A stretch of 64,000 bases of DNA from a virus. Position numbers and translations under genes: made by a program. Below are positions 3,517-44,582 of the stretch, piece by piece. The notes below the pieces were generated by a model, which saw nothing but the letters and a program-made list of their open reading frames with translations, was not told the origin of the DNA and did no database searches. Position 1 is the first letter of the stretch. Every line of letters starts with the position of its first letter. Location of the stretch: IMG/VR virus record IMGVR_UViG_3300042914_003164, positions 32,001-96,000 of that record; one strand, given 5' to 3'.

Positions 3517-3544
3517 AAAGCCTTCCGAGAAATCGGGGGGCTTT
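3517..3544 (+). terminator. hairpin/terminator-like element
   Basis: AAAGCC-TTCCGA-GAAA-TCGGGG-GGCTTT. Confidence 0.5.
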
Positions 3545-3593
3545 GTGCTGCGGTCTGTCGCTACAATCACCGCAAGGCTTTTGGACAACTTTC

Positions 3594-5276
3594 GTGATTG
3601 ACGTTCCAAATTCTATTGTCCTAAGCGCGGATGATCTGCCGGTCCCCTTCGACCGGCGTGATCCTAATACGGAAAGTGTCTACTCGTCAGTCACAGATGT
3701 AGACGCATACTCGATTGATCAGGCCGAACAGATTTCAAGAGTCCTGCCAATCAAGTTTTGCGTGCTGCCAGAGTTTTACCTGGATGAAGCTATCAGCGAT
3801 AGCATACCGCAGGATTTTAGGGAGCACAACGACAGCTACAACGTTCGGAAGACAAGGGCGCTTTCGTGTTTTGAATCCTTCTATTCTCACTATGTTGACA
3901 TCGTTGTTGGTACTGCTCTTCGCAAAGGTGTTATCACGCCGCCAGAGGTTCCAGCTACCTGGGAGAAATTTTTCAAGAATGTAAATCTTGAAGGTAAGTC
4001 GATAACCTCTTTTACCAAGACTCTTTTCACCGAAGCCCTTAATGGTGGCATTGCCGGTTTGATGGCGGACTACCCCCGCGTTACAGATCAGGATCGGGCG
4101 GCACAGCGAAGAATGAATCTTCGGCCATATTTTACTGTTATTAAAGTAGATGACATTCTTGACTGTCGCCACGAAAATGGTCCGGTAACAATTAACGGCG
4201 TAACCTCTTACGAAACAAAAGTTATTTACCTGAGAATCAAATCAGAGATTAGACGTGCCAGCGCAACTAACGAACACTTTGAGGAGGTTGTGCCAACGGT
4301 TGTCGTCTATGACATTCCAGAACCAGAGTCAGAAGAGATTCCAAAAAGAGTTCGTGTAAGAATTTACGAAAAAAAGCTATCAAGCAATACAAATGAGTAC
4401 ATTCTTCCTCAGGAGAATATCGGTTTTCTTTCTATTGAGTATATCCCCTTTGTACCTTGTTACGGAGGGAAGGAAGAGGCTTTCTGTCGAGCGAGGCCGC
4501 TTCTATTTGACATTGCACGCCTCAATCTTCATCACTGGGCAACGTGTGCGGACCTGTCTGAAACGATTCACCTTAACGCTTCGCCAATGCTTACAGGTAC
4601 TGGTGTTAAACCAGAAGAAGAGATTTACTCTGGATCTGGTCGCAGCCTGTTCAGTCAAGACCCAAATGCAAGATTTGGTATGTTGAGACCCGGCATGGAG
4701 GGTGCCGAGACGACCCTGAAAGAGCTTGCGCGTATTGAAAGCGCAATGGACAGGCTTGCAGCAATCGCAATTGCCCCTGGTAAAACTCAGGTTGAATCCG
4801 GCTTTGCAAAGTTACTTGACAGATCGCAGTCGGATTCGCAGCTCGCTGTTCTCGTGGGCTCTTTGCAGGACTGCCTGAACCGCGCCCTTTGGTATGCCTC
4901 TGGTTACAGACCAGATGACTACCCAATCGTTGAAATCATTATTAGCAAAAACTTTATCCCTGCTAAGCTACACAGCCAACAGGTAATGGCAGTAAGCTCT
5001 CTCTATAGGGATTCTGGGGCTATCCCGATTAGGGAGTTTCTTGAAATACTGGAAGCTGGCGAAATGTTTGAAGGTATTCACGGTTTCAATGTTCCTAAGC
5101 TTCTTGAGCGCATGGGGCTGACAGGTGATGAGCGCTACGTCGAGGCGTCCCCCGAGCCCGCACGGGAGCCGACTCGCAATCCGACCATCAGGGTCCAAAA
5201 CCTGATGGAGGAGTCTGCCGGTAATTCGCTGGAAGGGGAATCGGCTGAAGGGGCCGTAGAAAATCCTGAAGGGTGA
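3594..5276 (+). CDS. portal protein (DUF4055-like)
   Basis: Follows terL; IPFVPCY, PLLFDIARLNLHHW, LHxxxxPML motifs; GTG 3594 preferred as start. Confidence 0.85.
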   Translation: MIDVPNSIVLSADDLPVPFDRRDPNTESVYSSVTDVDAYSIDQAEQISRVLPIKFCVLPEFYLDEAISDSIPQDFREHNDSYNVRKTRALSCFESFYSHYVDIVVGTALRKGVITPPEVPATWEKFFKNVNLEGKSITSFTKTLFTEALNGGIAGLMADYPRVTDQDRAAQRRMNLRPYFTVIKVDDILDCRHENGPVTINGVTSYETKVIYLRIKSEIRRASATNEHFEEVVPTVVVYDIPEPESEEIPKRVRVRIYEKKLSSNTNEYILPQENIGFLSIEYIPFVPCYGGKEEAFCRARPLLFDIARLNLHHWATCADLSETIHLNASPMLTGTGVKPEEEIYSGSGRSLFSQDPNARFGMLRPGMEGAETTLKELARIESAMDRLAAIAIAPGKTQVESGFAKLLDRSQSDSQLAVLVGSLQDCLNRALWYASGYRPDDYPIVEIIISKNFIPAKLHSQQVMAVSSLYRDSGAIPIREFLEILEAGEMFEGIHGFNVPKLLERMGLTGDERYVEASPEPAREPTRNPTIRVQNLMEESAGNSLEGESAEGAVENPEG

Positions 5277-5307: not shown

Positions 5308-6147
5308 GTGGAACTGACCCCGGAACAGGCGCTTGCCAGGCTTCAGGAAACTGAGGCCAGGCTGCAAGAGAGCCAGACCAAGCTTGAGGCTCTGGAGCGG
5401 ACGAAGACCGGCCTTCTTAACGACCTGACCAAGCGCAAAAGCGTTGAGCGGCTGGTGAGGGCTGCCGGTATCGACCTTGAGGCCGATAACCTTGAGGATC
5501 AGGTTGCCGAGGTTCTTGGTAAGCGCCCTGCTGCGCCCCCCGCTGCGCCACCGACCCCTCCCTCTGGCGATGGAGCGAATCCCGAACCGCCTGCGCCTGG
5601 CGGCAACAGCAGCGAAGAGGCGCTGAAGGCGCGTCTCGCCACGATGGAGCGAATGCTGGAGAAGATGTCGGACAAGCTTCAGCAGACGGAGAAGGAGAAG
5701 CAGCAAGAGCGCAAAGCGCGACTTGAGGAATATCAGAGGTCGGTTGTTGTTCAAGAGCTTGAAAAAGTTGGTTGCAAGCGCCCTCACCATCTCTATGAGC
5801 TGCAGAAAAGAAACTTTCGCATACTGGAGGGACCGGATGGAACCCATGAAGTGGTCTTCGGCACCGAAGAAAACCCGGTGAACGTTGCAGGTGCCGTCTC
5901 GGACTTTGAAAAGGATGACGAGTATTCGATCTACTTTCCGAGTATTGTTGCAAGTGGATCGGGACTCCCCACATCCCGCTCTTCCATGCCTGCCAGCTCC
6001 AATCCATTCACCAAGACTGGCAGCAACGGAACTGAAGCATCACGGATTATGGCAAGCGACATGGCCCTGGCCCGCAAGCTTGCACGCGAAGCTCGTGGAC
6101 GTGGTGACTTCGATCCCATCCTTTGCGGAACCGTTGACAAGCGCTGA
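5308..6147 (+). CDS. capsid scaffolding protein
   Basis: Coiled-coil, Pro-rich linker, C-terminal ASGSG...NPF motif; lies between portal and capsid genes. Confidence 0.75.
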
Positions 6148-6195: not shown

Positions 6196-6232
6196 ATGGC
6201 CTACCCTTGGGGCAGCGATGCCCAGACAGACC

Positions 6233-6406
6233 ATGCCAATGAAAAAGGGCAAATCCCAGAAGACTATTTCTAAGAACGTCTCTACTCTCAGGAAAGAAGG
6301 CTATCCCGAAAAACAGGCCGTAGCAATTGCTATGAACAAGGCCGGCATGAACAAGAAAAAGCCAAAGCCAAAGGGAAAGGGTAAGAAATACGGTAAAGCA
6401 AGGTGA
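6233..6406 (+). CDS. small Lys-rich basic protein
   Basis: [34 protein letters not shown]...; QAVAIA-type small phage protein. Confidence 0.75.
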
Positions 6407-6573
6407 AAAGGAACATCCCCACTGACAAGGCTTTGTATGCTCGGGTCAAGGCTGAAGCAAAAAGAAAATTTAAGGTCTATCCGAGTGTTTATGCAAATTC
6501 TTGGCTTGTTCGTGAGTACAAGAAACGCGGCGGCGGCTACAGAAGCCGAGAGGTGAAAGGTGGCAAAAAGTAG
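6403..6573 (+). CDS. small basic protein (56 aa; not in ORF track)
   Basis: GTG 6403 overlaps the previous TGA; ...[39 protein letters not shown]... Confidence 0.75.
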
Positions 6574-6823
6574 AAAGCCGAGGGGCGGCCTTGGTCGCTG
6601 GTTTGCCGAAAAGTGGATTGACGTAAAAACCGGAAAGCCATGCGGTAGACAGGCTGGCGAAAAACGCCGAAGCTACCCAGCCTGTCGGCCATCAAAGCGG
6701 GTTTCAGTCGATACCCCAAAAACAGCCGGAGAGCTATCGAAAAAAGAGAAAGAAAAGTTCAAGCGCGAAAAGACAGGCTCCAAGCGAATTGGCTATCAGC
6801 ATAAGCGCAAAAAGCGGTCCTAG
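6560..6823 (+). CDS. small basic protein (DUF5872-like)
   Basis: GLGRWFAEKWIDV...CGR...YPACRPSKRV..DTPKT motif; family name recalled, not searched. Confidence 0.7.
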   Translation: MAKSRKPRGGLGRWFAEKWIDVKTGKPCGRQAGEKRRSYPACRPSKRVSVDTPKTAGELSKKEKEKFKREKTGSKRIGYQHKRKKRS

Positions 6824-6846
6824 CATTAGCTGGAGGCACGAGAGAA

Positions 6847-7149
6847 ATGGCCCCTCGCCCTGTCAAAAACAAGCGCCGCACTGCGGCTTACTATGCGGCT
6901 AACCCGGAAGCTCGCAAAAAGAAAGCTGCCTATGATAAGAAGTATCACTCTACGCCGGAGCGCAGAAAGTATAGAGCGGCCTTGTCTGCAGAGCGCAGGG
7001 CGAGGGGTATTGATGGCAAGGGCGGCGGTGATCTGAGTCACACAACTGGCGGGGGGTTTAAGCGAGAGAACCCGTCAACCAATCGCGCAAGAAATGGCCA
7101 TGGTGGCAGGCGCAGATTGGCCAAGAGTGGTCGCAGGCCGCGCCGCTAA
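6847..7149 (+). CDS. Arg/Lys-rich protein with degenerate HNH-like motif
   Basis: DLSHTTGG...NRARNG. Confidence 0.65.
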   Translation: MAPRPVKNKRRTAAYYAANPEARKKKAAYDKKYHSTPERRKYRAALSAERRARGIDGKGGGDLSHTTGGGFKRENPSTNRARNGHGGRRRLAKSGRRPRR

Positions 7150-7173
7150 CCTTGCGAAAAAGGAAGCAGAACC

Positions 7174-7506
7174 ATGGCAGTTCCAGAGCGCGTCAAAAGC
7201 AAAATGAAAGAGCTTGTGCTTTCTGGTGTAAACAAGCCAAAGAAAACCCCAGGCCACAAGACCAAATCACATGTTGTAATGGCCAAGGAGGGCGAGAAGT
7301 ACAAGCTGATTCGGTTTGGTCAGCAAGGAGTTGTTGGAGCTGGCAAAAAGCCAAAAACAAAAGCTGAAAAAATGCGCCGCAGACTTTACTATGAGCGCCA
7401 TAACGCTCAAGACCCAAATCCATCAAAGCTTTCGGCTCGCTACTGGAGCAATGTTACAAAATGGGCAGTTATCTTATGTTTAGCCGCCAGCCAAGTTACT
7501 ACATGA
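7174..7506 (+). CDS. basic viral protein (KLIRFGQQG...SARYW family)
   Basis: KSHVVMAKEG..KLIRFGQQG..RH..KLSARYWS..KW. Confidence 0.7.
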   Translation: MAVPERVKSKMKELVLSGVNKPKKTPGHKTKSHVVMAKEGEKYKLIRFGQQGVVGAGKKPKTKAEKMRRRLYYERHNAQDPNPSKLSARYWSNVTKWAVILCLAASQVTT

Positions 7507-8403: not shown

Positions 8404-8500
8404 GCGAATGTATTCCTTGACACAGTGAGTTTTGCTGGTCTGCAAACATTTCTTGTTTTCAGGTTCAGAAGAATTTAACTTATCACTGTCATGAGAGTTT

Positions 8501-8530
8501 GGCTGGGGGTGAGACCCCGGCCTTTTTCTT
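8501..8530 (+). terminator. Rho-independent terminator
   Basis: GGCTGGGGG-TGAGA-CCCCGGCC-TTTTTCTT. Confidence 0.75.
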
Positions 8531-8531
8531 T

Positions 8532-8540
8532 GGCTACTAT
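8532..8540 (+). promoter_or_regulatory. putative late promoter -10 box GGCTACTAT for major capsid gene
   Basis: Member of the recurrent (G)CTAnnnT motif; directly follows a terminator. Confidence 0.6.
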
Positions 8541-8550
8541 TTGGGGGAGA

Positions 8551-8598
8551 GAGGCAGTGCCTCGCAGCAAGGGCCTGAACGGTCCAGCAGCAGTGCTG
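8551..8598 (+). promoter_or_regulatory. leader hairpins with GC-AGT-GC loop
   Basis: GAGGC-AGT-GCCTC (8551-8563) and CAGC-AGT-GCTG (8588-8598); same motif at 12088. Confidence 0.5.
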
Positions 8599-8653
8599 TG
8601 AAGCTGAATCAACGGCGGCCTAGCCGCAGATTTATCCCCTCGCTTTCAAAACA

Positions 8654-9646
8654 ATGCTTCTCGCAGGTGTTCCCCTTATCCCTGAGCTTTTCCTTGGCTA
8701 TCAGCAGGAAGAGATCAAGGACAAAAACGCTCTCGTGACCTCTGGCCTCATGGTCACGAACGGCGCCATCCAAGAAGAATTCCAGAAAGGTGGCAAGACT
8801 ATTGACCTTCCTTTCTTCGGTGATCTCGGCGGTGATTCGGAGATTGACTCTGACACCGTGCCTTCCGTGCCCGAGGACATTGCCGGTGATCTCCAGGTTG
8901 GCGTGCGCCTGATGCGCCGGAAATCCTGGAAGTCCAGCGACCTTGCTGCTGATCTGTCCGGTTCTGACCCTGCTCAGGCAATCGCCCGTAGCACTGGTCG
9001 CTACTGGATCCGTGACATGCAGAAGAGCTGCACCAGCATCCTGCGCGGTGTGTTCGGAAGCGGCGGCCCCCTGGTCACAAGCCACTCTGTTGGCGGCACA
9101 GGCGAAGCTCTTTCGCAAAGTCTGATGGTTGCTGGTATCGCCAAGCTTGGTGACGCTGGTGATGAGCTGACCGGCGTGATGATGCACTCTCAGGTCTTCT
9201 ATGCCCTGATGAATCTGGATCTGATCGTTCCCGCCAGCCAGACCTCTCAGATCGACACCCGCCTGTCTGCTGAGGCTCTGGAGCGCCCCACCTACCTGGG
9301 CCGCCCGGTGTTTGTGGATGACAAGCTGCCCTTCGACCTGAGTGCTGGCACTGGTGGTGGTAGCGGTAAGACCGTGTATCACACCTACTTCTTCGGCCCC
9401 GGCGCTTTCGCCTATGCAACCGCTCCGGCCAAGAATCCGGTTGAAACCGATCGGGACAAGTTCCTTGGGATTGACTTCCTGATCAATCGCACCCACTACT
9501 TGGTACATCCCAACGGGATCTCTTGGACCGGCAACGCAGCCGCCAACGCTCCGAGCAACGCCGAACTGCAAACTTCTGCCAACTGGAAGAAGGTGTTCGA
9601 CGACGACCGCAACATTCGGATCACCCGAATGCTCTGCTACGTCTGA
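8654..9646 (+). CDS. major capsid protein
   Basis: 330 aa; GGKTIDLPFFGDL, DLAADLSGSDP, MHSQVF, YLGRPVFVDD, HPNGISW; strong codon bias. Confidence 0.92.
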   Translation: MLLAGVPLIPELFLGYQQEEIKDKNALVTSGLMVTNGAIQEEFQKGGKTIDLPFFGDLGGDSEIDSDTVPSVPEDIAGDLQVGVRLMRRKSWKSSDLAADLSGSDPAQAIARSTGRYWIRDMQKSCTSILRGVFGSGGPLVTSHSVGGTGEALSQSLMVAGIAKLGDAGDELTGVMMHSQVFYALMNLDLIVPASQTSQIDTRLSAEALERPTYLGRPVFVDDKLPFDLSAGTGGGSGKTVYHTYFFGPGAFAYATAPAKNPVETDRDKFLGIDFLINRTHYLVHPNGISWTGNAAANAPSNAELQTSANWKKVFDDDRNIRITRMLCYV

Positions 9647-9666
9647 TTGGTCACTGAAGTTCAAAT

Positions 9667-9690
9667 GCCCCGGTTCGCCGGGGCTTCAAT
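9667..9690 (+). terminator. hairpin after MCP (weak T tail, possible attenuator)
   Basis: GCCCCGG-TTCG-CCGGGGC. Confidence 0.6.
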
Positions 9691-9708
9691 CTTTCTGAGG
9701 ATTCAACC

Positions 9709-9981
9709 ATGAGTGCTGGTACTTTCAGGATGCGACGCGAGGCCGCCGAGCGTGCTGCTGCTGAGCGTGCTGCCCAAGAGGCCGCTTCCGCCCCCGAGCC
9801 CGCCCCCGAGCCCGCCCCGGAGCCCGCCCCGGAGACCGACGAGGAGACCGACGAGGAGGCTGCCGCTCCTGCTGCCGCTTCCGCGCCCGAGCCCGCCCAG
9901 GGGGCCGCCGCAGAGCCGAAGGCGAAACCCGCAGCTACGGTTGCCAAAGCGAAGCCGAGTACCGCTTCTCGGCCCGCCTGA
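9709..9981 (+). CDS. Ala/Pro/Glu low-complexity protein
   Basis: APEP repeats; position directly after MCP. Confidence 0.65.
   Translation: MSAGTFRMRREAAERAAAERAAQEAASAPEPAPEPAPEPAPETDEETDEEAAAPAAASAPEPAQGAAAEPKAKPAATVAKAKPSTASRPA
9790..9858 (+). repeat. 12-bp tandem repeats (GCCCCCGAGCCC-type about 4 copies; GAGACCGACGAG x2)
   Basis: Visible directly; encode APEP and ETDE. Confidence 0.8.
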
Positions 9982-9989
9982 GGTGAGCC

Positions 9990-10646
9990 ATGGCCTTTGT
10001 CTCGACACTGGGGGCGACTGACGCCAACTCCTACCTGTCGGTAGCAGAGGCCATCGAGCTGCTTGAGGTCTTGCCTCAGAGTTTTGGTGTTGCTGCCTGG
10101 CTGGACTTCACGGAAGAGCAGCAGGAGCAAACGCTGGTAGCTGCAACGATGGCGATCAACCCTTTGCATTGGAAGGGTCAGCCATCCTCTACCGAGCAGA
10201 GTCTTGCGTGGCCCAGGCGCGTCATTGCGGACCACTACTTTGTGGCCGATGACGAGCTGCCGATTGATTTTAAGACTGCCGTTGCCTACATGGCAGCATT
10301 TCTTGGTATCAATGGTGGCTACACAGGAATCGCTAACGCAGACGGCGGCTCTAAGAGGTATCGCAATAGCGAGTATGAAGAGGTTGAGCTTGGCCGAAGT
10401 GATCTAAGGGTCAAGTTTGATAAGAGTGGGGCGCTGCAGACTGGCGCCCTCTTCATACCGCCTTTTTGCATGGACATCTTTGCGCGATACATGATTCGCG
10501 GAGAATTTAACCAGCCCAGGGTCAGAAGGGAATCGAACGCAAGGATTGGTTACAGGGGATTCGTGGCCAGGCAGAAGGCTTCTGGCGTGCGATACATCAA
10601 TGGGCAGCTCTGGCCCTATGGCGGCACCTGGAGCAATAGGTTCTGA
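9990..10646 (+). CDS. head-tail adaptor (DnaT-like family)
   Basis: ANSYLSVAEA...LVAAT..WKG....QSLAWPR. Confidence 0.8.
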   Translation: MAFVSTLGATDANSYLSVAEAIELLEVLPQSFGVAAWLDFTEEQQEQTLVAATMAINPLHWKGQPSSTEQSLAWPRRVIADHYFVADDELPIDFKTAVAYMAAFLGINGGYTGIANADGGSKRYRNSEYEEVELGRSDLRVKFDKSGALQTGALFIPPFCMDIFARYMIRGEFNQPRVRRESNARIGYRGFVARQKASGVRYINGQLWPYGGTWSNRF

Positions 10647-10648
10647 TC

Positions 10649-11035
10649 ATGTCTCTTGTAGATGACATTTTTGGTGACTTACCTGGCCCGTTAATTGATG
10701 AGTGGGGGATTCCTGGCGTCTACGTCAAGAAGCCTCTTGAGCCTGAGTACGATCCTGATCTGGGGACGTTTGCTGCGACAACCGCGCCTGATGCCAGGGT
10801 GAATGTGAGCATCCTGCCCTTGCAGATTCAGCCCGAAGAGGCAAAGGGTGAGGTTCAGCTTACGGACGTAAAAATCCTGATTGCTGCTGAAAAGCTTGGT
10901 GACTACTACCCCAAGGTTGCAGACTGGATTGAATACTCTCAGGCTGGTGTCACACGAGTCGCCAAAATTGTTGCGCCTACGTCCTACCGTGGAACGGGTC
11001 CAATTCTTCATGCTGTATTTGCGAGGTTGACGTAA
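10649..11035 (+). CDS. head closure/head-tail joining protein
   Basis: Synteny; YDP..G and D.KILI motifs. Confidence 0.6.
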   Translation: MSLVDDIFGDLPGPLIDEWGIPGVYVKKPLEPEYDPDLGTFAATTAPDARVNVSILPLQIQPEEAKGEVQLTDVKILIAAEKLGDYYPKVADWIEYSQAGVTRVAKIVAPTSYRGTGPILHAVFARLT

Positions 11036-11631
11036 TGCAAAGAGCGAATCGACCAACACCAAGAGAGTCTGACCTAAGGCGCAGGGGTAGAGGTGGCTGG
11101 GGCTCGGTTTCTGAAAGAATTAAGAATCGAGTCAACCTTGCAGCCAGACAAGCGGCAGCGAACGTAATGAACGACCTTGCCGAGGCTGGCCCCGCCTATA
11201 GCGGCAAGTTTCGTGATAGTTGGCAGGCTCGTGCGATTGCCACTGGTGCAACTTCAGCCGGTGGCTATCCATACACAACTCGCAGGATTCCTATGCTGCC
11301 GACTACAGCAAGGGAGATGGATCGTGTTGCCGTATTTGAGATTGCAAATACATCTCCTTACGCTCTCTATGCTATGGATTTAATCCCTGGCACATGGAGA
11401 AAACCAAAAGGCGTTGAGCCGCTCGGTGGTATTGATTTTGGCGTCAAATACGGCGATAGAGAAAAAGGAACAACGTTCCGCTGGGAGGTGCAACCCGGAG
11501 ATGGCGATAACGTATCAACTGCGGCGCAGGATTGGTACTCAAACTATGTTCGCGGTGGCGGACTTTCGGATGGCGTGAAAAGAGCCGTGAAGCTTGCCTT
11601 TGGTGCTGGCCCCGGCGTTAACATCAGATAG
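11035..11631 (+). CDS. tail completion protein (HK97 gp10-like)
   Basis: GPAYSGKFRDSW...IANTSPYA. Confidence 0.65.
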   Translation: MQRANRPTPRESDLRRRGRGGWGSVSERIKNRVNLAARQAAANVMNDLAEAGPAYSGKFRDSWQARAIATGATSAGGYPYTTRRIPMLPTTAREMDRVAVFEIANTSPYALYAMDLIPGTWRKPKGVEPLGGIDFGVKYGDREKGTTFRWEVQPGDGDNVSTAAQDWYSNYVRGGGLSDGVKRAVKLAFGAGPGVNIR

Positions 11632-11644
11632 TTGAGGCAGTGAA

Positions 11645-12076
11645 ATGGATCACCAAAAGATATGCGCAGCGATTGAGAAACCATTTAACACCGCCTTCAA
11701 AGCGCTGACACCACCTGTCAAGATTTACTTTGATAATGTTACGGCAATGCCGCCTGATGCCCCCGGCGAGTATGTCAGGATCAATATCACATTTGGGATG
11801 ACAAGTGAAGACGCCCTTGGCTGCCTGCTTGATCGAGCAAGGGGTGCCATCATTGCCAGGATTTTTACGCCCAAGAATGCTGGCGCCGCTCGCGCAAGAC
11901 AACTTGCGACTAGCGCAAGAACTGTTCTGGAGGACCTGGCAAAGGGGCCAAAGGGTGTGTCTGGGATATTCCTAAGAACAAGAGATGTAGAGGGGCCAGC
12001 TTTCTTTGCTGATAATACCGAACCTCACTTTATGGCCCGCCTTGAGGCGACATGGCAGGCCAGTGATCTTGGCTAG
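11645..12076 (+). CDS. tail terminator protein
   Basis: IYFDNV...GAIIARIFTPKNAG; precedes the tail tube gene. Confidence 0.7.
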   Translation: MDHQKICAAIEKPFNTAFKALTPPVKIYFDNVTAMPPDAPGEYVRINITFGMTSEDALGCLLDRARGAIIARIFTPKNAGAARARQLATSARTVLEDLAKGPKGVSGIFLRTRDVEGPAFFADNTEPHFMARLEATWQASDLG

Positions 12077-12100
12077 GATTGTGACATCGGGCAGTGCCCG
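12071..12100 (+). promoter_or_regulatory. putative late promoter GGCTAGGAT plus leader hairpin CGGGC-AGT-GCCCG
   Basis: Same architecture as upstream of MCP. Confidence 0.55.
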
Positions 12101-12126
12101 CACTGCTGTTCTCCGCACCAAGGTCC

Positions 12127-12882
12127 ATGTCCTGTGAAACCACGGTACTGACCGGCTCTTCGGGCGCTTTTTGGTATAAACCTGCCAACACCGAAGCCTG
12201 TCTCACCGCCGCCGCTTTTCCCACAACTGGCGCAAACATTACGGGTCCAGCTTTCTTGGGCTTCCGTGTCAATGATCCTGTAACCCTTGCCTACCCTGTT
12301 GGTGCAACTGTCACCGGGGCAATCGCTGCTGGCAACTACTTCATCAAAACCTACGATGCTCCAACCGGGGTGATAACGCTCAGCTCCACCGCTGGTGGCA
12401 CTGCCGTTACCGCAACCGCCGCTCCCACCGGCTTTGGTGATTCGCTGGCCACCATTGTCTATCGGAGCTTTGCCCCTGTTGCTCAGACTCGGGATTGGAG
12501 CTTTGAGGTTACTCTTTCCGAGATTGATGTAACTACCATCGGTGTTCCTGCTGGTCAGTTTGCGCCTTTCCGGCGCTACCAAACCTCTTACGCTGATGGC
12601 ACTGGCACCGCAACCATCTACTTCACCGAAGATGATAGCGCCCTGGCCAACCGCCTCATTACTGACGTGATGCAGCGTAAGCAAAAGGGTGCTGCGGTGA
12701 AGCTCTACATTGATACCGTTTCATCTGGCGGCACTGTCAGTGACATCCTCAGCCGCTACATCGAAGCGCCCGTGGTGCTCACGTCCGCCAACTTCGCGGC
12801 AAACCCCGACGACGCTCTCGCTATCACCGTCAATTTCCGACCCAGCGGTAACGTGACTCTCGACTTCCTGCAGAGCGCCTGA
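12127..12882 (+). CDS. major tail (tube) protein
   Basis: RDWSFEVTLSEIDVTTIG...DGTGTATIYF; capsid-like codon bias; followed by terminator and chaperone. Confidence 0.85.
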   Translation: MSCETTVLTGSSGAFWYKPANTEACLTAAAFPTTGANITGPAFLGFRVNDPVTLAYPVGATVTGAIAAGNYFIKTYDAPTGVITLSSTAGGTAVTATAAPTGFGDSLATIVYRSFAPVAQTRDWSFEVTLSEIDVTTIGVPAGQFAPFRRYQTSYADGTGTATIYFTEDDSALANRLITDVMQRKQKGAAVKLYIDTVSSGGTVSDILSRYIEAPVVLTSANFAANPDDALAITVNFRPSGNVTLDFLQSA

Positions 12883-12906
12883 TTCAGCTCTCTCGATGGT
12901 CCCATG

Positions 12907-12932
12907 GCCTCCGGTTATCCGGGGGCTTTTTT
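12907..12932 (+). terminator. Rho-independent terminator
   Basis: GCCTCCGG-TTAT-CCGGGGGC-TTTTTT. Confidence 0.85.
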
Positions 12933-12965
12933 GTTGCTATAGTAGATGGGCCTCCGATTATTCAC

Positions 12966-13382
12966 ATGGCCTCCCCGAATGCGCCGATGGGCTTTGGTGC
13001 CGCTCTTGAGAAGCTCAAGAAAGTAGCGAACCTTGAGCCTGTCCGCAAGGACATCCACCTGAACGATGGTGTTACGACCCTGACAATGTATGTGACCCCC
13101 TTGGTGGCCGCAGAGCGTGATCGTGCTCGCGCAAACGCCAAGAAGGCTTCCAAGTCCGATGACGACAGCAACTGGCTAATGCACCTCTTGGTGCTGAAGG
13201 CCAAAGATGAAGACGGCAATCCGATGTTCACTTCTGGTGAAATCGAGGAGCTGAAGCGCGAAGTGCGTGACGAAGACCTGCAAAAGCTTCAGCTTGCTGT
13301 GCTTGGCAGTGACGATGACAGCATTGAAACCTCGTCAAAAAAATCGCAGACGAACTCCGGCAAGACCGCTGGACCTACCTGA
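12966..13382 (+). CDS. tail assembly chaperone (gpG-like)
   Basis: Between tail tube and tape measure; KAKDEDG.PMF motif; slippery site near 3' end. Confidence 0.8.
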   Translation: MASPNAPMGFGAALEKLKKVANLEPVRKDIHLNDGVTTLTMYVTPLVAAERDRARANAKKASKSDDDSNWLMHLLVLKAKDEDGNPMFTSGEIEELKREVRDEDLQKLQLAVLGSDDDSIETSSKKSQTNSGKTAGPT

Positions 13383-13531
13383 AGATGGTGGTTGCCGAGA
13401 CCCTCGGCAAGTTCTATGTTGAAGTCAATTCAACGATTACGGACGAAGAACTCTTGATGTGGTCTGGATACTTTCAGATCAAGAAAGAGGATCAAGACGA
13501 GTCGATGAAGAAGGCAAAGAGGGGGCGCTAG
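13337..13531 (+). CDS. tail assembly chaperone gpGT extension via -1 frameshift
   Basis: A_AAA_AAA at 13337-13343; -1 frame reads IADELRQDRWTYLKMVVAETLGKFYVEVNSTITDEELLMWSGYF...GR to TAG 13531. Confidence 0.8.
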   Translation, partial: KKIADELRQDRWTYLKMVVAETLGKFYVEVNSTITDEELLMWSGYFQIKKEDQDESMKKAKRGR

Positions 13532-13544
13532 GCCCCCCTTTTTC
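13517..13544 (+). terminator. terminator-like hairpin over the gpGT stop
   Basis: GGGGGC-GCTAG-GCCCCC-C-TTTTT. Confidence 0.6.
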
Positions 13545-13581
13545 TTGGCTACGCTGGTGCTACTTGGGTCGATAGTGCGCC

Positions 13582-28319: not shown

Positions 28320-31300
28320 GTGCCTGCTCTCGCCCCGTCCGACTCAAGCGGTTTCATAAACGACGCCGAAGACCAAGGAGCGGTTAAAGAGCAGCTTGGC
28401 GTACTGGTTGATATGCTGCGCCAAATTGGCGGAAACGCCAATGTAGTTGCTGGTGCTCTTGAGCAAGCCGACCCCCTTTCCTCGCCTTTCACTCTTTACG
28501 TCAACCCATATATCGGCTCAGACAATTTTGTAGGCGGATCTTACAACAGCTTTGAGGCTGGCTCGACCGACGAAGAGATTATTGCGAGCAAGCTCAAAAG
28601 AATTGAAAAGCAAAGGCTTGAGTGCGGCTATACCCCATATAGACCGTTCAAGAGTATCAACAGGGCCGCAATTGAAGCAGCGATCATTACGAGCAAGGAA
28701 TGGTACACCTATTCCGATCCGAAGGCTCATGTTGACTGCGTAACGATTGTTTTAAGCGGTGGCGTTCACATTGTCTACAACAATCCCAGCAGCAGCCCTA
28801 CGGGTCTGGCGAGCTGGGGGGAGTCAAAGACACCAACGATTGAAGAGCTGATAGCTTTCAACCCTGTTACAGGTGGTGTACTTCTTCCTCGTGGCTGCTC
28901 GATGTATGGGCAGGATCTACGCAAAACAACCATTCGCCCCAACTGGGTTCCAGCTGCTGTAGACGAAGCCGCAGACTACAGCAATCGCAGGGCGATTCTG
29001 AAGGTAAGCGGAACCGGATTCTTTTTCAATGCTACCGCCATGGACAAGGTGGGGCATACGGAATCCGTTCACCTGCTTGATGTATTCCAGCCGGGGAGCA
29101 AAGCAGAGCTTGATGCCTTCTACCTGAAGATTGCATCCGCTGTTGGCTCTGGCGCTGATCTTGCAAACGGGCTTCTTGTTACCCGCCCAAGCGAGCACGA
29201 AATCGTAGGCCCCATCAATCAGGCACAAGCGCCCACCTCCAGCTGGGATACCACTGCTGGTGCATCGCCTTACATTTTCAATTTCTCTGTTCGTTCTGAG
29301 TATGGAATGGGCGGTGCATTCTGGGATGGTGACAAGATAAGCGGCTTAAAGTCAATGGTTTGCGCTAACTTCACCGGCACAAACCAGCAAAAAGACCTGA
29401 GGTGCTGGCAAGTTTACGAAGGTGGCAACTGGGTTACTCTGACAAATTCCAGCCAAGATTACCAAAAATACATTGATACTTCACCGGACAATTTAAGAAG
29501 GAATCCAGCTCGTACGACCCGTCATATCTCCGCTATCAATGATGCCTATATCCAGAAGGTATCCATCTTTGGGATTGGCCAAGGCGAAGTCACGCTGGCT
29601 GACAACGGTGGCGAGATTACAGATAACGGAGGCAATTCTACCTTTGGTGGCTGCAGCGCCATTGCCAAGGGTTACAAGCGTGCAGCTTTTGCAAAAGATA
29701 AAAACTGGACCGTAGGCCGTATCAGGGTCCCCCTTAACCTGAGCGAGAAGCTGGGGAATCTTCGCAGGATATATCTTGGTGTTGTCGCCAGCGTAAGTAG
29801 TTCGGGGATCACCCTTACCAGTGGTCTTGCAATCGACGCCAGTTCAGCGACGACCCCGGCTGTCCTGCTTGCCGATGGCTACACCCTGGCCAGTGGCTCT
29901 CGAATCTGGATCGACAACCCCAACGGCCCGGACTGGAGGGCCACGCTGACCGGCTCTGCCTGGAGCAGCTCGACGCCTGCGGTGATCAACACCACCGGAG
30001 AGCCCCTTCAGGCCACCACGAACGCCCCTGCGGGCACTGCCGCTGTTGGCAGGCGGGTCTACATTCGCCGGGTCGTTGACACCCGTTCAGTGGCCGAGCG
30101 GAGGGTGTCCCTCCTACTGAACAACACCGCCAGCGCTCGACTGCCCCAGCGCGATTCGGTGCTCCAGACGGATCCCGCTCGATCTGGTGGTGCGATCAGC
30201 CGCGTCCTCGCACCTGGCGGCGAGGAGGTTCTGATTGTTTCTGGCGTTGGCGTTGGCGAAACCCCTGGCAGCGGGGTTGCGAAAACGGCTGAGATAACAA
30301 TTCGTCGCGGCGCTCCCAGCAAAGCCTATGATACAAATGCAACTTTTTACCGGCAAGGGACTGTAGTTCGCCACCAAGGTAAGCACTGGCAAGCAAAGAA
30401 CGATCTGATCAGTTCTGGTGCATCGCCTGATCCGCGATTCTGGGGTGAAGTGTTTGTTCACATGCCAAGCGCCTTCAACCCAGAGGATCCGATCAGTCAA
30501 GAAACTCCGATTTTGGTACTCGACACAGATACCAGCGACAGCGAAGATTCGACAACCCTTGGTATCAACTGGACAACCGCATGGACGGCTGCGGGTCCAA
30601 TCCGTGACCAGTATCGGGCAAGTACCGACTACCTCGGGGCGTACGCTCTTTTGCGTGCCCTCGGCTTTACAGAATCTGCGGCGCACAACGCACTTGTGCC
30701 AAAGGTTCAGCAAGTCCGTGAGCTGGATCCCTCCAGTTCGCTTGATTTTCCTGTCGCTCCCGCTGGTGGAGCTACTACTGGACTTGGCAGCTGGGCGGTG
30801 GAGTTTAGAAGGCCGTCAACAATCCGCCTCTACAACCATCAATGGGAGTGGGCTGGATACGGAAACTACTCAAAAGCAATGCCTGCCGTCCAGCAGGACA
30901 TGAGTGAATTCAACAAATTCACCTATTACTTTACAAACGCTTTTGGCGGCAGAGTAGTTCCAAAAGGCAGTAACGAAGACGGCTACGAGGTTTCGCCGCG
31001 TGGCCTCGAAGATATTGCGACCGGATCAACCATCAGCCCAGAGGATCTTGGCGGTCTTGGTATTGACGATGCCCAAAGAACTGACTTCCCAAATGGCATC
31101 CAGGTCGGCGCAACGGCCTTAGTGCAGGATCTTGAGATAAGCGGTCTTGTAACTTATTCCGATCAATCGCTTGCGAAGACCACCAGGAATGGTGCTGTTC
31201 AGCTTGCCAGCTACGAGGAGCTAACGGAGACCACCGACATCCCCATTGCAGGCAGCGATGCCTCGATTGAGGCACTGCCTCATGTTGTGACAATTGGCGG

Positions 31301-40663: not shown

Positions 40664-40854
40664 TGGTGATTATCTGGGTTGGGACGGGGAGGTTTAGCGC
40701 CTACATTGAAGGATTTAGCAGCTTAACTTTTGGTGGGCCTTTTTTCTTCGGCGGCTGGTCTATCGGCACTGCGGGTGAAAATCCGTTTGGTGTCGGGATC
40801 AGAGGCGCTGGTGTAGACGAACCAATCCACGACTCATCCGGGAGCATCATGTAA
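40663..40854 (+). CDS. small hypothetical protein
   Basis: Coupled at both ends; shares IG.AG...FGVG with the next protein. Confidence 0.55.
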   Translation: MVIIWVGTGRFSAYIEGFSSLTFGGPFFFGGWSIGTAGENPFGVGIRGAGVDEPIHDSSGSIM

Positions 40855-43643: not shown

Positions 43644-44582
43644 TCAAACTGCAGTAATTGAAAAGCTTTTTACAATAAATCTAAGCTTGTTAGTGATGAT
43701 CTGCAGTTTTTCCCTTACCGCTTGAGGAGTGCATCCAATTTGCTCAGCTATTTCTTTTGTGGAGAGCTGGTCTTCGCCTATTCCATACTTTTGCTTTATT
43801 ATTTGTTGCTCTGACTTCGTTAAAGCATTTATCGTCATCAATAGAAAGTTAATCTTTTCGCAGGTATCCTCGTTTTCTCTTATCTCAGACTCAACGTCAG
43901 CGCTAATAATATCTGCCAGCGAGCAGGTGTCTCTGAGGTTTGCCCTTCCGCCACTTGGTTTGAGGTCAAAAGAGATTATTACGGGATTCAAGGCCACTGC
44001 TGTTTGTATCTTCTCCGGGCTCTCTTCGTTAATAGCTTCGGCTATCTCAGTAAAAGATGGCTCTCGCATCAGCTCTGCGGAAAGCCTCGCTTTTGCCTCT
44101 TTCGCTTGCTTGATAGTCCTCTGTATATGCGCTGGGACCTTGATAGCACCTTCTTGTGATTCAATTGCTCTTGTTATGGCCTGTCTGATCCACCAGTAAG
44201 CGTATGTACTGAACTTGTAGCCCCTGCTTGGCTCAAACTTTTCCGCTGCTCTTGCCAAGCCTATAGCACCCTCCTGCATTAAATCCTGCAAAGTCATGTG
44301 AACTTGCCTTGCCTGAGACTTTTTTGCAATCGTGACTACAAGCCGCATGTTGGCCGAAATCATGCGATTTCTGGCTTTCAGTCCCCTCCTGGCAATTCTT
44401 CTTGACTGCGGATCAAGAGCCTTTAGCGATTCAGCAAGATTTGCGTCTGATACCTGATCAGCAATTTGATTCTCCCTCAAAAGCCTCATCATCTCCTGAA
44501 CCTGCGTACCAAGGATTATCTCTTCGTCGCAAGTCAGAAGAGGGACTCGCGCTACATCACGCATGTAGTCCTCGAAGCTCAT
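43644..44582 (-). CDS. phage sigma-70 family sigma factor (group 2/RpoS-like)
   Basis: Region 1.2 YM.DV.RVPLL..EE; region 2 NMRLVV.IAK, DLMQEG.IGL, GYKFSTYAYWWIRQAITR; regions 3 and 4. Confidence 0.93.
   Translation of the reverse strand: MSFEDYMRDVARVPLLTCDEEIILGTQVQEMMRLLRENQIADQVSDANLAESLKALDPQSRRIARRGLKARNRMISANMRLVVTIAKKSQARQVHMTLQDLMQEGAIGLARAAEKFEPSRGYKFSTYAYWWIRQAITRAIESQEGAIKVPAHIQRTIKQAKEAKARLSAELMREPSFTEIAEAINEESPEKIQTAVALNPVIISFDLKPSGGRANLRDTCSLADIISADVESEIRENEDTCEKINFLLMTINALTKSEQQIIKQKYGIGEDQLSTKEIAEQIGCTPQAVREKLQIITNKLRFIVKSFSITAV

Follow-up and report, generated by a model that had tools for sequence, protein, structure and literature searches.

A covarying GC-NGU-GC leader hairpin behind promoter-like boxes of the capsid and putative tail-tube genes in uncultured cyanophage-like siphoviruses

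Why would the major capsid protein gene and the putative tail-tube gene of a siphovirus share a small leader hairpin that stands before no other gene of its genome? The question is raised by a 64-kb window of viral DNA, bases 32001-96000 of a 109,690-bp record (IMG/VR record IMGVR_UViG_3300042914_003164) that is rated complete and whose window DNA occurs in lake metagenomes; coordinates below are window positions unless the genome or an L-numbered relative is named. Comparison across related viruses indicates that the hairpin is a real, conserved, and uncatalogued promoter-proximal RNA element, belonging to the class of cis-acting leader stem-loops. Judged from sequence, its best reading is an RNA-level role in raising or stabilizing the expression of the capsid and tail-tube proteins.

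A preliminary description of the window, made from its letters alone, had placed hairpins with a GCAGTGC center at 8551-8563, 8588-8598, and 12088-12100, shortly after putative -10 boxes. All three are present at these sites, the first beginning 10 nt after the box at 8532-8540 and the last 8 nt after the box at 12071-12079 (Table 1); at the second, the core CAGC-AGT-GCTG (8588-8598) can be extended by an outer G-U pair to 8587-8599. Taken by itself, the heptamer GCAGTGC shows no enrichment (19 occurrences in the window versus 14.9 +/- 3.4 in shuffles), and the hairpin form NN-GCAGTGC-N'N' occurs five times genome-wide where 1.74 are expected. Since 5 of 200 shuffles reach that hairpin count, counts inside one genome are weak evidence, and comparative data decide. 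A covariance model of box plus hairpin (R1) is significant in the complete genome only at the two leaders (E 1.4e-7 and 3.3e-5; next best E 0.4), in agreement with the earlier remark that the hairpin was not seen before other genes. Among five related near-complete genomes, the same model gives two significant matches in four (69-86 kb) and one in the fifth.

Protein searches of IMG/VR returned more than 100 relatives of the capsid protein and more than 575 of the tail-tube protein, among which about 90 distinct versions of the module could be compared; their proteins are 47-94% identical, and the other flanking intergenic sequence is free to vary. The preliminary description had proposed a scan of relatives, and in their orthologous leaders the motif is present. 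All 52 distinct capsid leaders carry two to four GC-NGT-GC apexes, where about 0.05 per leader is expected by chance, and 54 of 59 distinct tail-tube leaders carry a YGGGC-NGT-GCCCR hairpin. In four further tail-tube leaders the 5-bp stem persists, but the loop or the closing pair is changed (CAT, ACT, ACC, and GT-AGT-AC), and the single one without a hairpin probably has a mis-set start.

The stem is maintained by compensatory change. In a pairing test on 16 leader variants that were selected by the apex alone, 97.5% of stem cells are paired versus 74.8% in shuffles, a level that none of 500 shuffles reaches and that lies above all slid controls. Across the 90 distinct modules, the outermost pair is C-G in 43, G-C in 30, U-A in 13, and U-G in 4, and the fourth pair out from the loop, next to the outermost, is G-C in 65, A-U in 24, and G-U in 1, whereas the closing pair is C-G in all but one (U-A). 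Double changes in these modules are linked through G-U intermediates, a pattern that is not circular. The suspected covariation of the outer stem is thus confirmed, with C-G/U-A/U-G and A-U/G-C/G-U exchanges around a constant apex. The accompanying claim of an invariant GCAGTGC holds in part: the GC, GU, and GC of the apex are fixed, but any of the four bases (A, G, C, or U) may stand first in the loop, so that GC-NGU-GC and not GCAGUGC describes the motif. The G and U of the loop, together with the two pairs that close it, are constant across the approximately 90 modules and their internal copies, and the loop reads NGU in the sense orientation in about 86 of the 90. Copies from a single virus need not agree at the first loop position either: in more than half of 39 haplotypes, the capsid and tail-tube hairpins have different bases there.

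Two contigs depart from this loop in a distinctive way. At L134 1459-1471 and L137 1262-1274, the tail-tube loop is the exact reverse complement (ACT and ACC), while the capsid leaders of the same contigs keep NGU; these loops look like small loop inversions of a palindrome.

Both leader hairpins follow a box whose G-C-T-A-n-n-n-T pattern is invariant in the 90 modules, and the hairpin starts 7-10 nt later in both leaders and in every relative. The intervening spacer is variable in sequence, usually with a purine near position 7, and no -35 element is conserved upstream of the boxes. The hairpin-to-ATG distance, in contrast to that from box to hairpin, varies, from 27 nt for the tail tube to about 90-100 nt for the capsid. 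The spacing between box and hairpin is that of a -10 element to its start site, and we infer that the (G)GCTAnnnT boxes are promoters. The tail-tube box is retained in L005, L010, and L015, where the upstream stop codon sits elsewhere. GGCTAnnAT boxes are enriched in intergenic DNA, where GCTAnnnT is frequent as well, and a GCTAnnnT box also lies 5' of other genes that have no hairpin, which makes the hairpin an addition reserved for two high-copy genes. The phage sigma-70-family factor encoded in the window is a candidate reader of these boxes.

Intrinsic terminators stand behind both genes. Of 35 distinct relatives, 29 have one 3' of the capsid stop codon, and a canonical terminator follows the tail-tube stop codon by 18-32 nt in 50 of 50. 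With box and 5' hairpin at one end and terminator at the other, each of the two abundant virion proteins is encoded in a bounded unit. Upstream, the terminator-like hairpin at 8501-8522 would end the preceding transcript directly 5' of the capsid promoter box. Ahead of the chaperone and tape-measure genes, at 12906-12943 and 13521-13556, a unit of terminator hairpin, T-run, and GCTAnnnT box appears again, there without an NGU hairpin, so that the late region looks as if it were built of insulated terminator-promoter cassettes.

Table 1. Positions of the leader elements and associated genes in the window
Feature	Position	Strand	Basis or remark
Intrinsic-terminator-like hairpin plus T-run	8501-8522	+	Terminator scan; compensatory changes in relatives
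-10-like box GGCTACTAT, (G)GCTAnnnT type, no -35	8532-8540	+	Putative late promoter of capsid gene
Hairpin 1, GAGGC-AGU-GCCUC, -5.8 kcal/mol	8551-8563	+	10 nt 3' of box GGCTACTAT
Middle hairpin, GGGCC-UGAAC-GGUCC, -7.8 kcal/mol	8571-8585	+	Stem kept, loop length varies; missing in some relatives
Hairpin 3, GCAGC-AGU-GCUGU, -4.2 kcal/mol	8587-8599	+	Second GC-NGU-GC apex; invariant alignment columns
Conserved GAAGCUGAA tail	8600-8608	+	RNAalifold consensus
Fourth GC-rich triloop hairpin, GCGGC-CUA-GCCGC, -8.5 kcal/mol	8615-8627	+	Loop not conserved in sequence; present in part of the relatives
Major capsid protein gene (SPP1-like, HK97 fold family)	8654-9646	+	phrog_247, E 4e-73
Terminator-like hairpin, GCCCCGG-UUCG-CCGGGGC, plus T-rich tail	9667-9696	+	20 nt 3' of capsid stop codon
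Tail-terminator gene	11645-12076		Precedes putative tail-tube gene
-10-like box GGCTAGGAT	12071-12079	+	Overlaps TAG stop of tail-terminator gene
Tail-tube leader hairpin, CGGGC-AGU-GCCCG, -7.0 kcal/mol	12088-12100	+	8 nt 3' of box GGCTAGGAT, 27 nt 5' of ATG
Competing hairpin, GCAGUG-CCCG-CACUGC	12091-12106	+	Restricted to clade of the window phage; missing from most tail-tube leaders
Putative tail-tube (major tail) protein gene, 251 aa, unannotated	12127-12882	+	Synteny and weak fold search
Strong intrinsic terminator after tail-tube gene	12906-12927	+	Terminator scan
Chaperone gene	12966-13382		3' of putative tail-tube gene; followed by 2677-aa tape-measure gene
Phage sigma-70-family factor	43644-44582	-	Pfam Sigma70 regions 1.2, 2, 3, 4

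What would such a hairpin do? We propose, at a probability of about 0.5, that it is the RNA part of a conserved late-gene cassette that raises yield by shielding the mRNA, with the apex perhaps also serving as a recognition mark. In order, the cassette would consist of the box, 7-10 variable bases, a 5-bp stem-loop with the GC-NGU-GC apex, a short leader, the gene, and an intrinsic terminator. The box, which lacks a -35 partner, would probably be read by the host RNA polymerase with the phage sigma factor. Because the hairpin follows the box at the spacing of a -10 element to its start site, the capsid and tail-tube mRNAs would start 1-4 nt 5' of the stem-loop, with a predicted 3-4 nt between the mRNA 5' end and hairpin 1 of the capsid leader, and each message would carry a hairpin at both ends. 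The 5' stem-loop would most likely shield the message from 5'-end-dependent decay of the RNase E or RNase J type, raising the output of the two virion proteins. The invariance of the apex suggests a binding factor as well, and the apex, of which the capsid leader has two to four and the tail-tube leader one, would probably also be a recognition mark for it.

Several observations weigh against this proposal. The 100% pairing in our alignment A5 is partly circular because its modules were chosen for five of five pairs, and the single-sequence folding energies are unexceptional (z -0.1 to +0.7). In the clade of the window phage, the tail-tube hairpin faces a nearly isoenergetic competitor at 12091-12106 (-7.5 versus -8.4 kcal/mol). 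The mRNA 5' end is predicted solely from the spacing to the box, and some capsid-leader copies lie far from it. Finally, the apex is invariant, though a pure end-protecting stem-loop needs no fixed sequence.

Other readings give recognition by a factor the main role. A tentative one, of low probability, is that the GC-NGU-GC triloop is the operator of a novel RNA-binding factor, possibly a host protein or one of the small, strongly basic, and unannotated products of the ORFs that separate the scaffold gene from the capsid gene. By reading two to four sites on the capsid message and one on that of the tail tube, this factor would set the ratio of head to tail protein. If true, this would be a dedicated posttranscriptional stoichiometry controller of virion assembly in a large family of uncultured cyanophage-like siphoviruses. 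A rival account, in which the hairpins are operators for a trans-acting RNA-binding regulator of phage or host origin that sets the relative translation or timing of capsid and tail tube, with end protection secondary or absent, we consider unlikely. The constancy of the apex (loop G, loop U, and both closing pairs), the copy number that differs by gene, and the shape of the C-NGU-G triloop, which resembles the protein-bound pseudo-triloops of the iron-responsive element (IRE) and of hepatitis B virus (HBV) epsilon, all speak for such a regulator. However, the hairpin leaves the ribosome-binding site free and stands at widely differing distances from the ATG, so a translational operator is unlikely. 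Moreover, the first loop base is unmatched between copies of one genome, giving no sign of coevolution with a phage-specific partner, and domain searches of the genome found no RRM, cold-shock, S1, or NusG-domain genes, so any factor would be host encoded or novel.

A promoter-proximal antitermination or anti-pausing RNA, comparable to lambda boxB with N or to HK022 put, would let the polymerase read through downstream terminators. Its fixed position just 3' of the promoter box, its small and conserved form, and the abundance of intrinsic terminators in the late region are what such an RNA would predict. We regard it as quite unlikely, since the terminators are well conserved, including the one kept after the tail-tube gene in all 50 relatives, and in the window are trailed by fresh promoter-like boxes; the tail-tube terminator is followed immediately by a new GCTAnnnT box, and termination is thus apparently meant to work. 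In addition, the tail-tube leader offers one triloop hairpin rather than a pentaloop boxB with boxA or a two-stem put, and a NusG/LoaP-like gene was not found.

The preliminary description had left open whether the element acts as RNA or as a DNA operator. A double-stranded DNA element, either a palindromic operator or a downstream promoter element for a dimeric regulator or the sigma-polymerase complex, would account for the constant distance from the -10-like box, for a stem that is near fixed in each gene class (GAGGC in capsid and YGGGC in tail tube), and for the two or three tail-tube leaders with an exact reverse-complement loop (ACT, ACC). Yet the compensatory changes pass through G-U states, which are C-A mismatches on the opposite strand, the center is asymmetric, its G and U keeping a single orientation in nearly all modules, and extra copies lie 40-130 nt 3' of the box, deep within the capsid leader. 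These features favor RNA over duplex DNA and make the DNA operator very unlikely.

It is likewise very doubtful that a long late transcript is cut at box and spacer by an RNase E-type endonuclease, with the hairpin stabilizing the downstream product: RNase E sites are typically single-stranded A/U-containing segments beside stem-loops, and no terminator precedes the tail-tube box, which overlaps the end of the upstream gene, but the invariant T-A-n-n-n-T is a classic -10 signature, a terminator lies directly 5' of the capsid box, and the same box precedes many other genes. An N4-type DNA-hairpin promoter was rejected as the -10-like box precedes the hairpin (a search for a single-subunit RNA polymerase had no match, but likewise none in control genomes, so absence is not shown by it), and so was mimicry of the tRNA-Thr anticodon (NGU), as the loop has 3 nt and not 7 and no U33 equivalent.

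Hairpin 1 is kept in all capsid leaders examined, its fourth pair varying among A-U, G-C, and G-U. The GCUG of the GAAGCUGAA tail may pair with CAGC at 8566-8569 and so enclose hairpins 2 and 3 as a three-way junction, a tentative structure for which there is a single compensatory change. A 36-codon open reading frame (ORF) across the capsid leader (8491-8601) was rejected because in relatives it meets a stop after two codons. Upstream, a conserved noncoding stretch of about 100 nt (8404-8530) holds a GTCATGAG box at 8488-8495 and ends with the terminator at 8501-8522; it has a weak AniS-like match in Rfam (E 0.11) and could be a 3' untranslated region or a small RNA. In the tail-tube leader, the competing GCAGUG-CCCG-CACUGC hairpin was rejected as the conserved structure, being isoenergetic in the window clade and not kept in the wider family; refolding into it is a possible clade-specific switch.

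Further copies of the motif were examined in the genome and beyond. The two other genomic hairpin copies, 6875-6887 and 31268-31282, are antisense and within ORFs. The first, GCCGC-AGT-GCGGC on the minus strand followed by a minus-strand T-run, lies in the 5' end of ORF 6847-7149 and is kept in L003 and L016, possibly through coding constraint alone. An extra combination of box and hairpin near genome position 16,990 (minus strand) was discounted as it lies inside a coding frame, and the sole intergenic GCACTGC, at 40766, was rejected as an antisense small-RNA candidate, having no convincing RNA-gene features. A search for the tail-tube leader's 20-mer through 596 Gb of bacterial and archaeal genomes gave four matches, all in unrelated high-GC genomes without phage homologues and judged to be chance, and no prophage or host copy was found there. 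The exact 20-mer also occurs in an intergenic gap of an unrelated contig with a podovirus-type portal (L030 3259-3278), which may be coincidence, given that it arises four times by chance in 596 Gb.

The leaders belong to a siphovirus morphogenesis module with a portal gene at 3543-5276, a scaffold-like gene at 5308-6147, and the capsid, adaptor, head-closure, and tail-terminator genes up to 12076. The 251-aa product of the gene that follows is taken as the putative tail tube on synteny and a weak fold search; its structure model is poor (pLDDT, the predicted local distance difference test score, 62.6), and the four best PDB rows of that search are the siphovirus tail tubes of T1, phiXa, FCWL1, and Mystique. 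Between the scaffold and capsid genes (6215-7506) lies a series of strongly basic, Lys/Arg-rich small ORFs, whose products as nucleic-acid binders would be speculative. Their sole family assignment, Pfam DUF5872, is divided over two overlapping ORFs, 6403-6573 (profile positions 1-45) and 6560-6823 (48-114), which may reflect a frameshift, a programmed shift, or a split gene.

The phage that encodes the sigma factor has the cyanosiphoviruses S-CBS3, S-CBS1, KBS-S-2A, and S-LBS1 as its nearest isolates, and its host is likely a picocyanobacterium. We found no isolate that carries the motif, and S-CBS3 and S-LBS1 have no hairpin before their tail-tube genes. The marine cyanosiphoviruses KBS-S-2A (L060 5900-5960) and S-H1 (L061 5920-5950) each have two mini hairpins of the GGGC-TGC-GCCC type in the capsid leader, an analogous yet different triloop motif; the tail-tube leader of KBS-S-2A has no mini hairpin.

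Tailed phages produce capsid and tail-tube proteins by the hundred against a few copies of the products of neighboring genes, a difference that is usually credited to translation efficiency and rarely traced to defined RNA elements. Here, a compact and sequence-specific module of box, 5' hairpin, gene, and terminator is reserved for these two genes across hundreds of uncultured freshwater and marine phages, which makes it a candidate new RNA family for curation. Mutants of the loop G and U and of the stem would offer a handle on stabilization versus factor binding in cyanophage-type systems, whose control of late genes is hardly characterized, and the module could serve as a portable high-expression part.

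How does this element compare with known systems? No Rfam 15 family reaches its gathering threshold in the 64-kb window, none relevant appears at E<=10 on both leaders, and papers on P-SS2, S-LBS1, and SPP1 mention no such element. The IRE has a CAGUGN hexaloop with a C1-G5 pair and a bulged sixth base, and forms a protein-bound pseudo-triloop. HBV epsilon has a protein-bound CUGUGC pseudo-triloop (PMC2175316). With both, the phage hairpin shares a three-base xGU loop closed by a C-G pair. However, it is a true triloop: in all copies, the base that follows the closing G of the loop is itself paired within the stem, so the earlier observation that the CAGUG loop lacks the bulged sixth base of the IRE is correct. 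It also has no consistent C bulge, its first loop base is free even within one genome, and it belongs to a bacterial virus. The iron/aconitase link, which had been raised as speculation, finds no footing: the defining IRE features are absent, and neither leader matches Rfam IRE_I or IRE_II even at E<=10.

The operators of RNA-phage coat proteins (MS2, Q-beta, and PP7) and the T4 RegA sites overlap the ribosome-binding site or start codon. They resemble the element described here as small hairpins with sequence-specific loops in the control of structural genes, but here the position is fixed to the promoter box, and the hairpin ends 27 nt before the tail-tube ATG and about 90 nt before that of the capsid. 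Lambda boxB combines a GNRA-like pentaloop with a boxA partner and is bound by the N protein, and HK022 put has two stems in about 70 nt. Like them, the element is a short conserved hairpin soon after a putative phage promoter; unlike boxB, its loop is a 3-nt NGU and the conserved terminators downstream are apparently meant to function, and unlike put, the tail-tube leader has a single 13-nt hairpin and the capsid leader several in variable architecture.

The promoter-early stem-loop (PeSL) units of T4-type phages and the start-associated sequences of cluster K mycobacteriophages precede many genes per genome, and their function is largely inferred from sequence. They too are short conserved motifs that accompany promoters and stem-loops before subsets of genes, whereas the module here is found only before the capsid and tail-tube genes. 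Stabilizing stem-loops at the 5' terminus are known from the E. coli ompA 5' untranslated region, the T7 gene 10 leader (phi10 promoter), B. subtilis aprE, and phage SP82, and act by structure alone. Different from these are the invariant GC-NGU-GC apex and the extra copies inside the capsid leader, as is a 5' end that is here predicted. The likeness lies in a small stem-loop a few nucleotides behind the predicted start of a highly expressed mRNA, which closes with a 3' terminator hairpin, and T7 likewise has a 5' stem-loop on its capsid mRNA.

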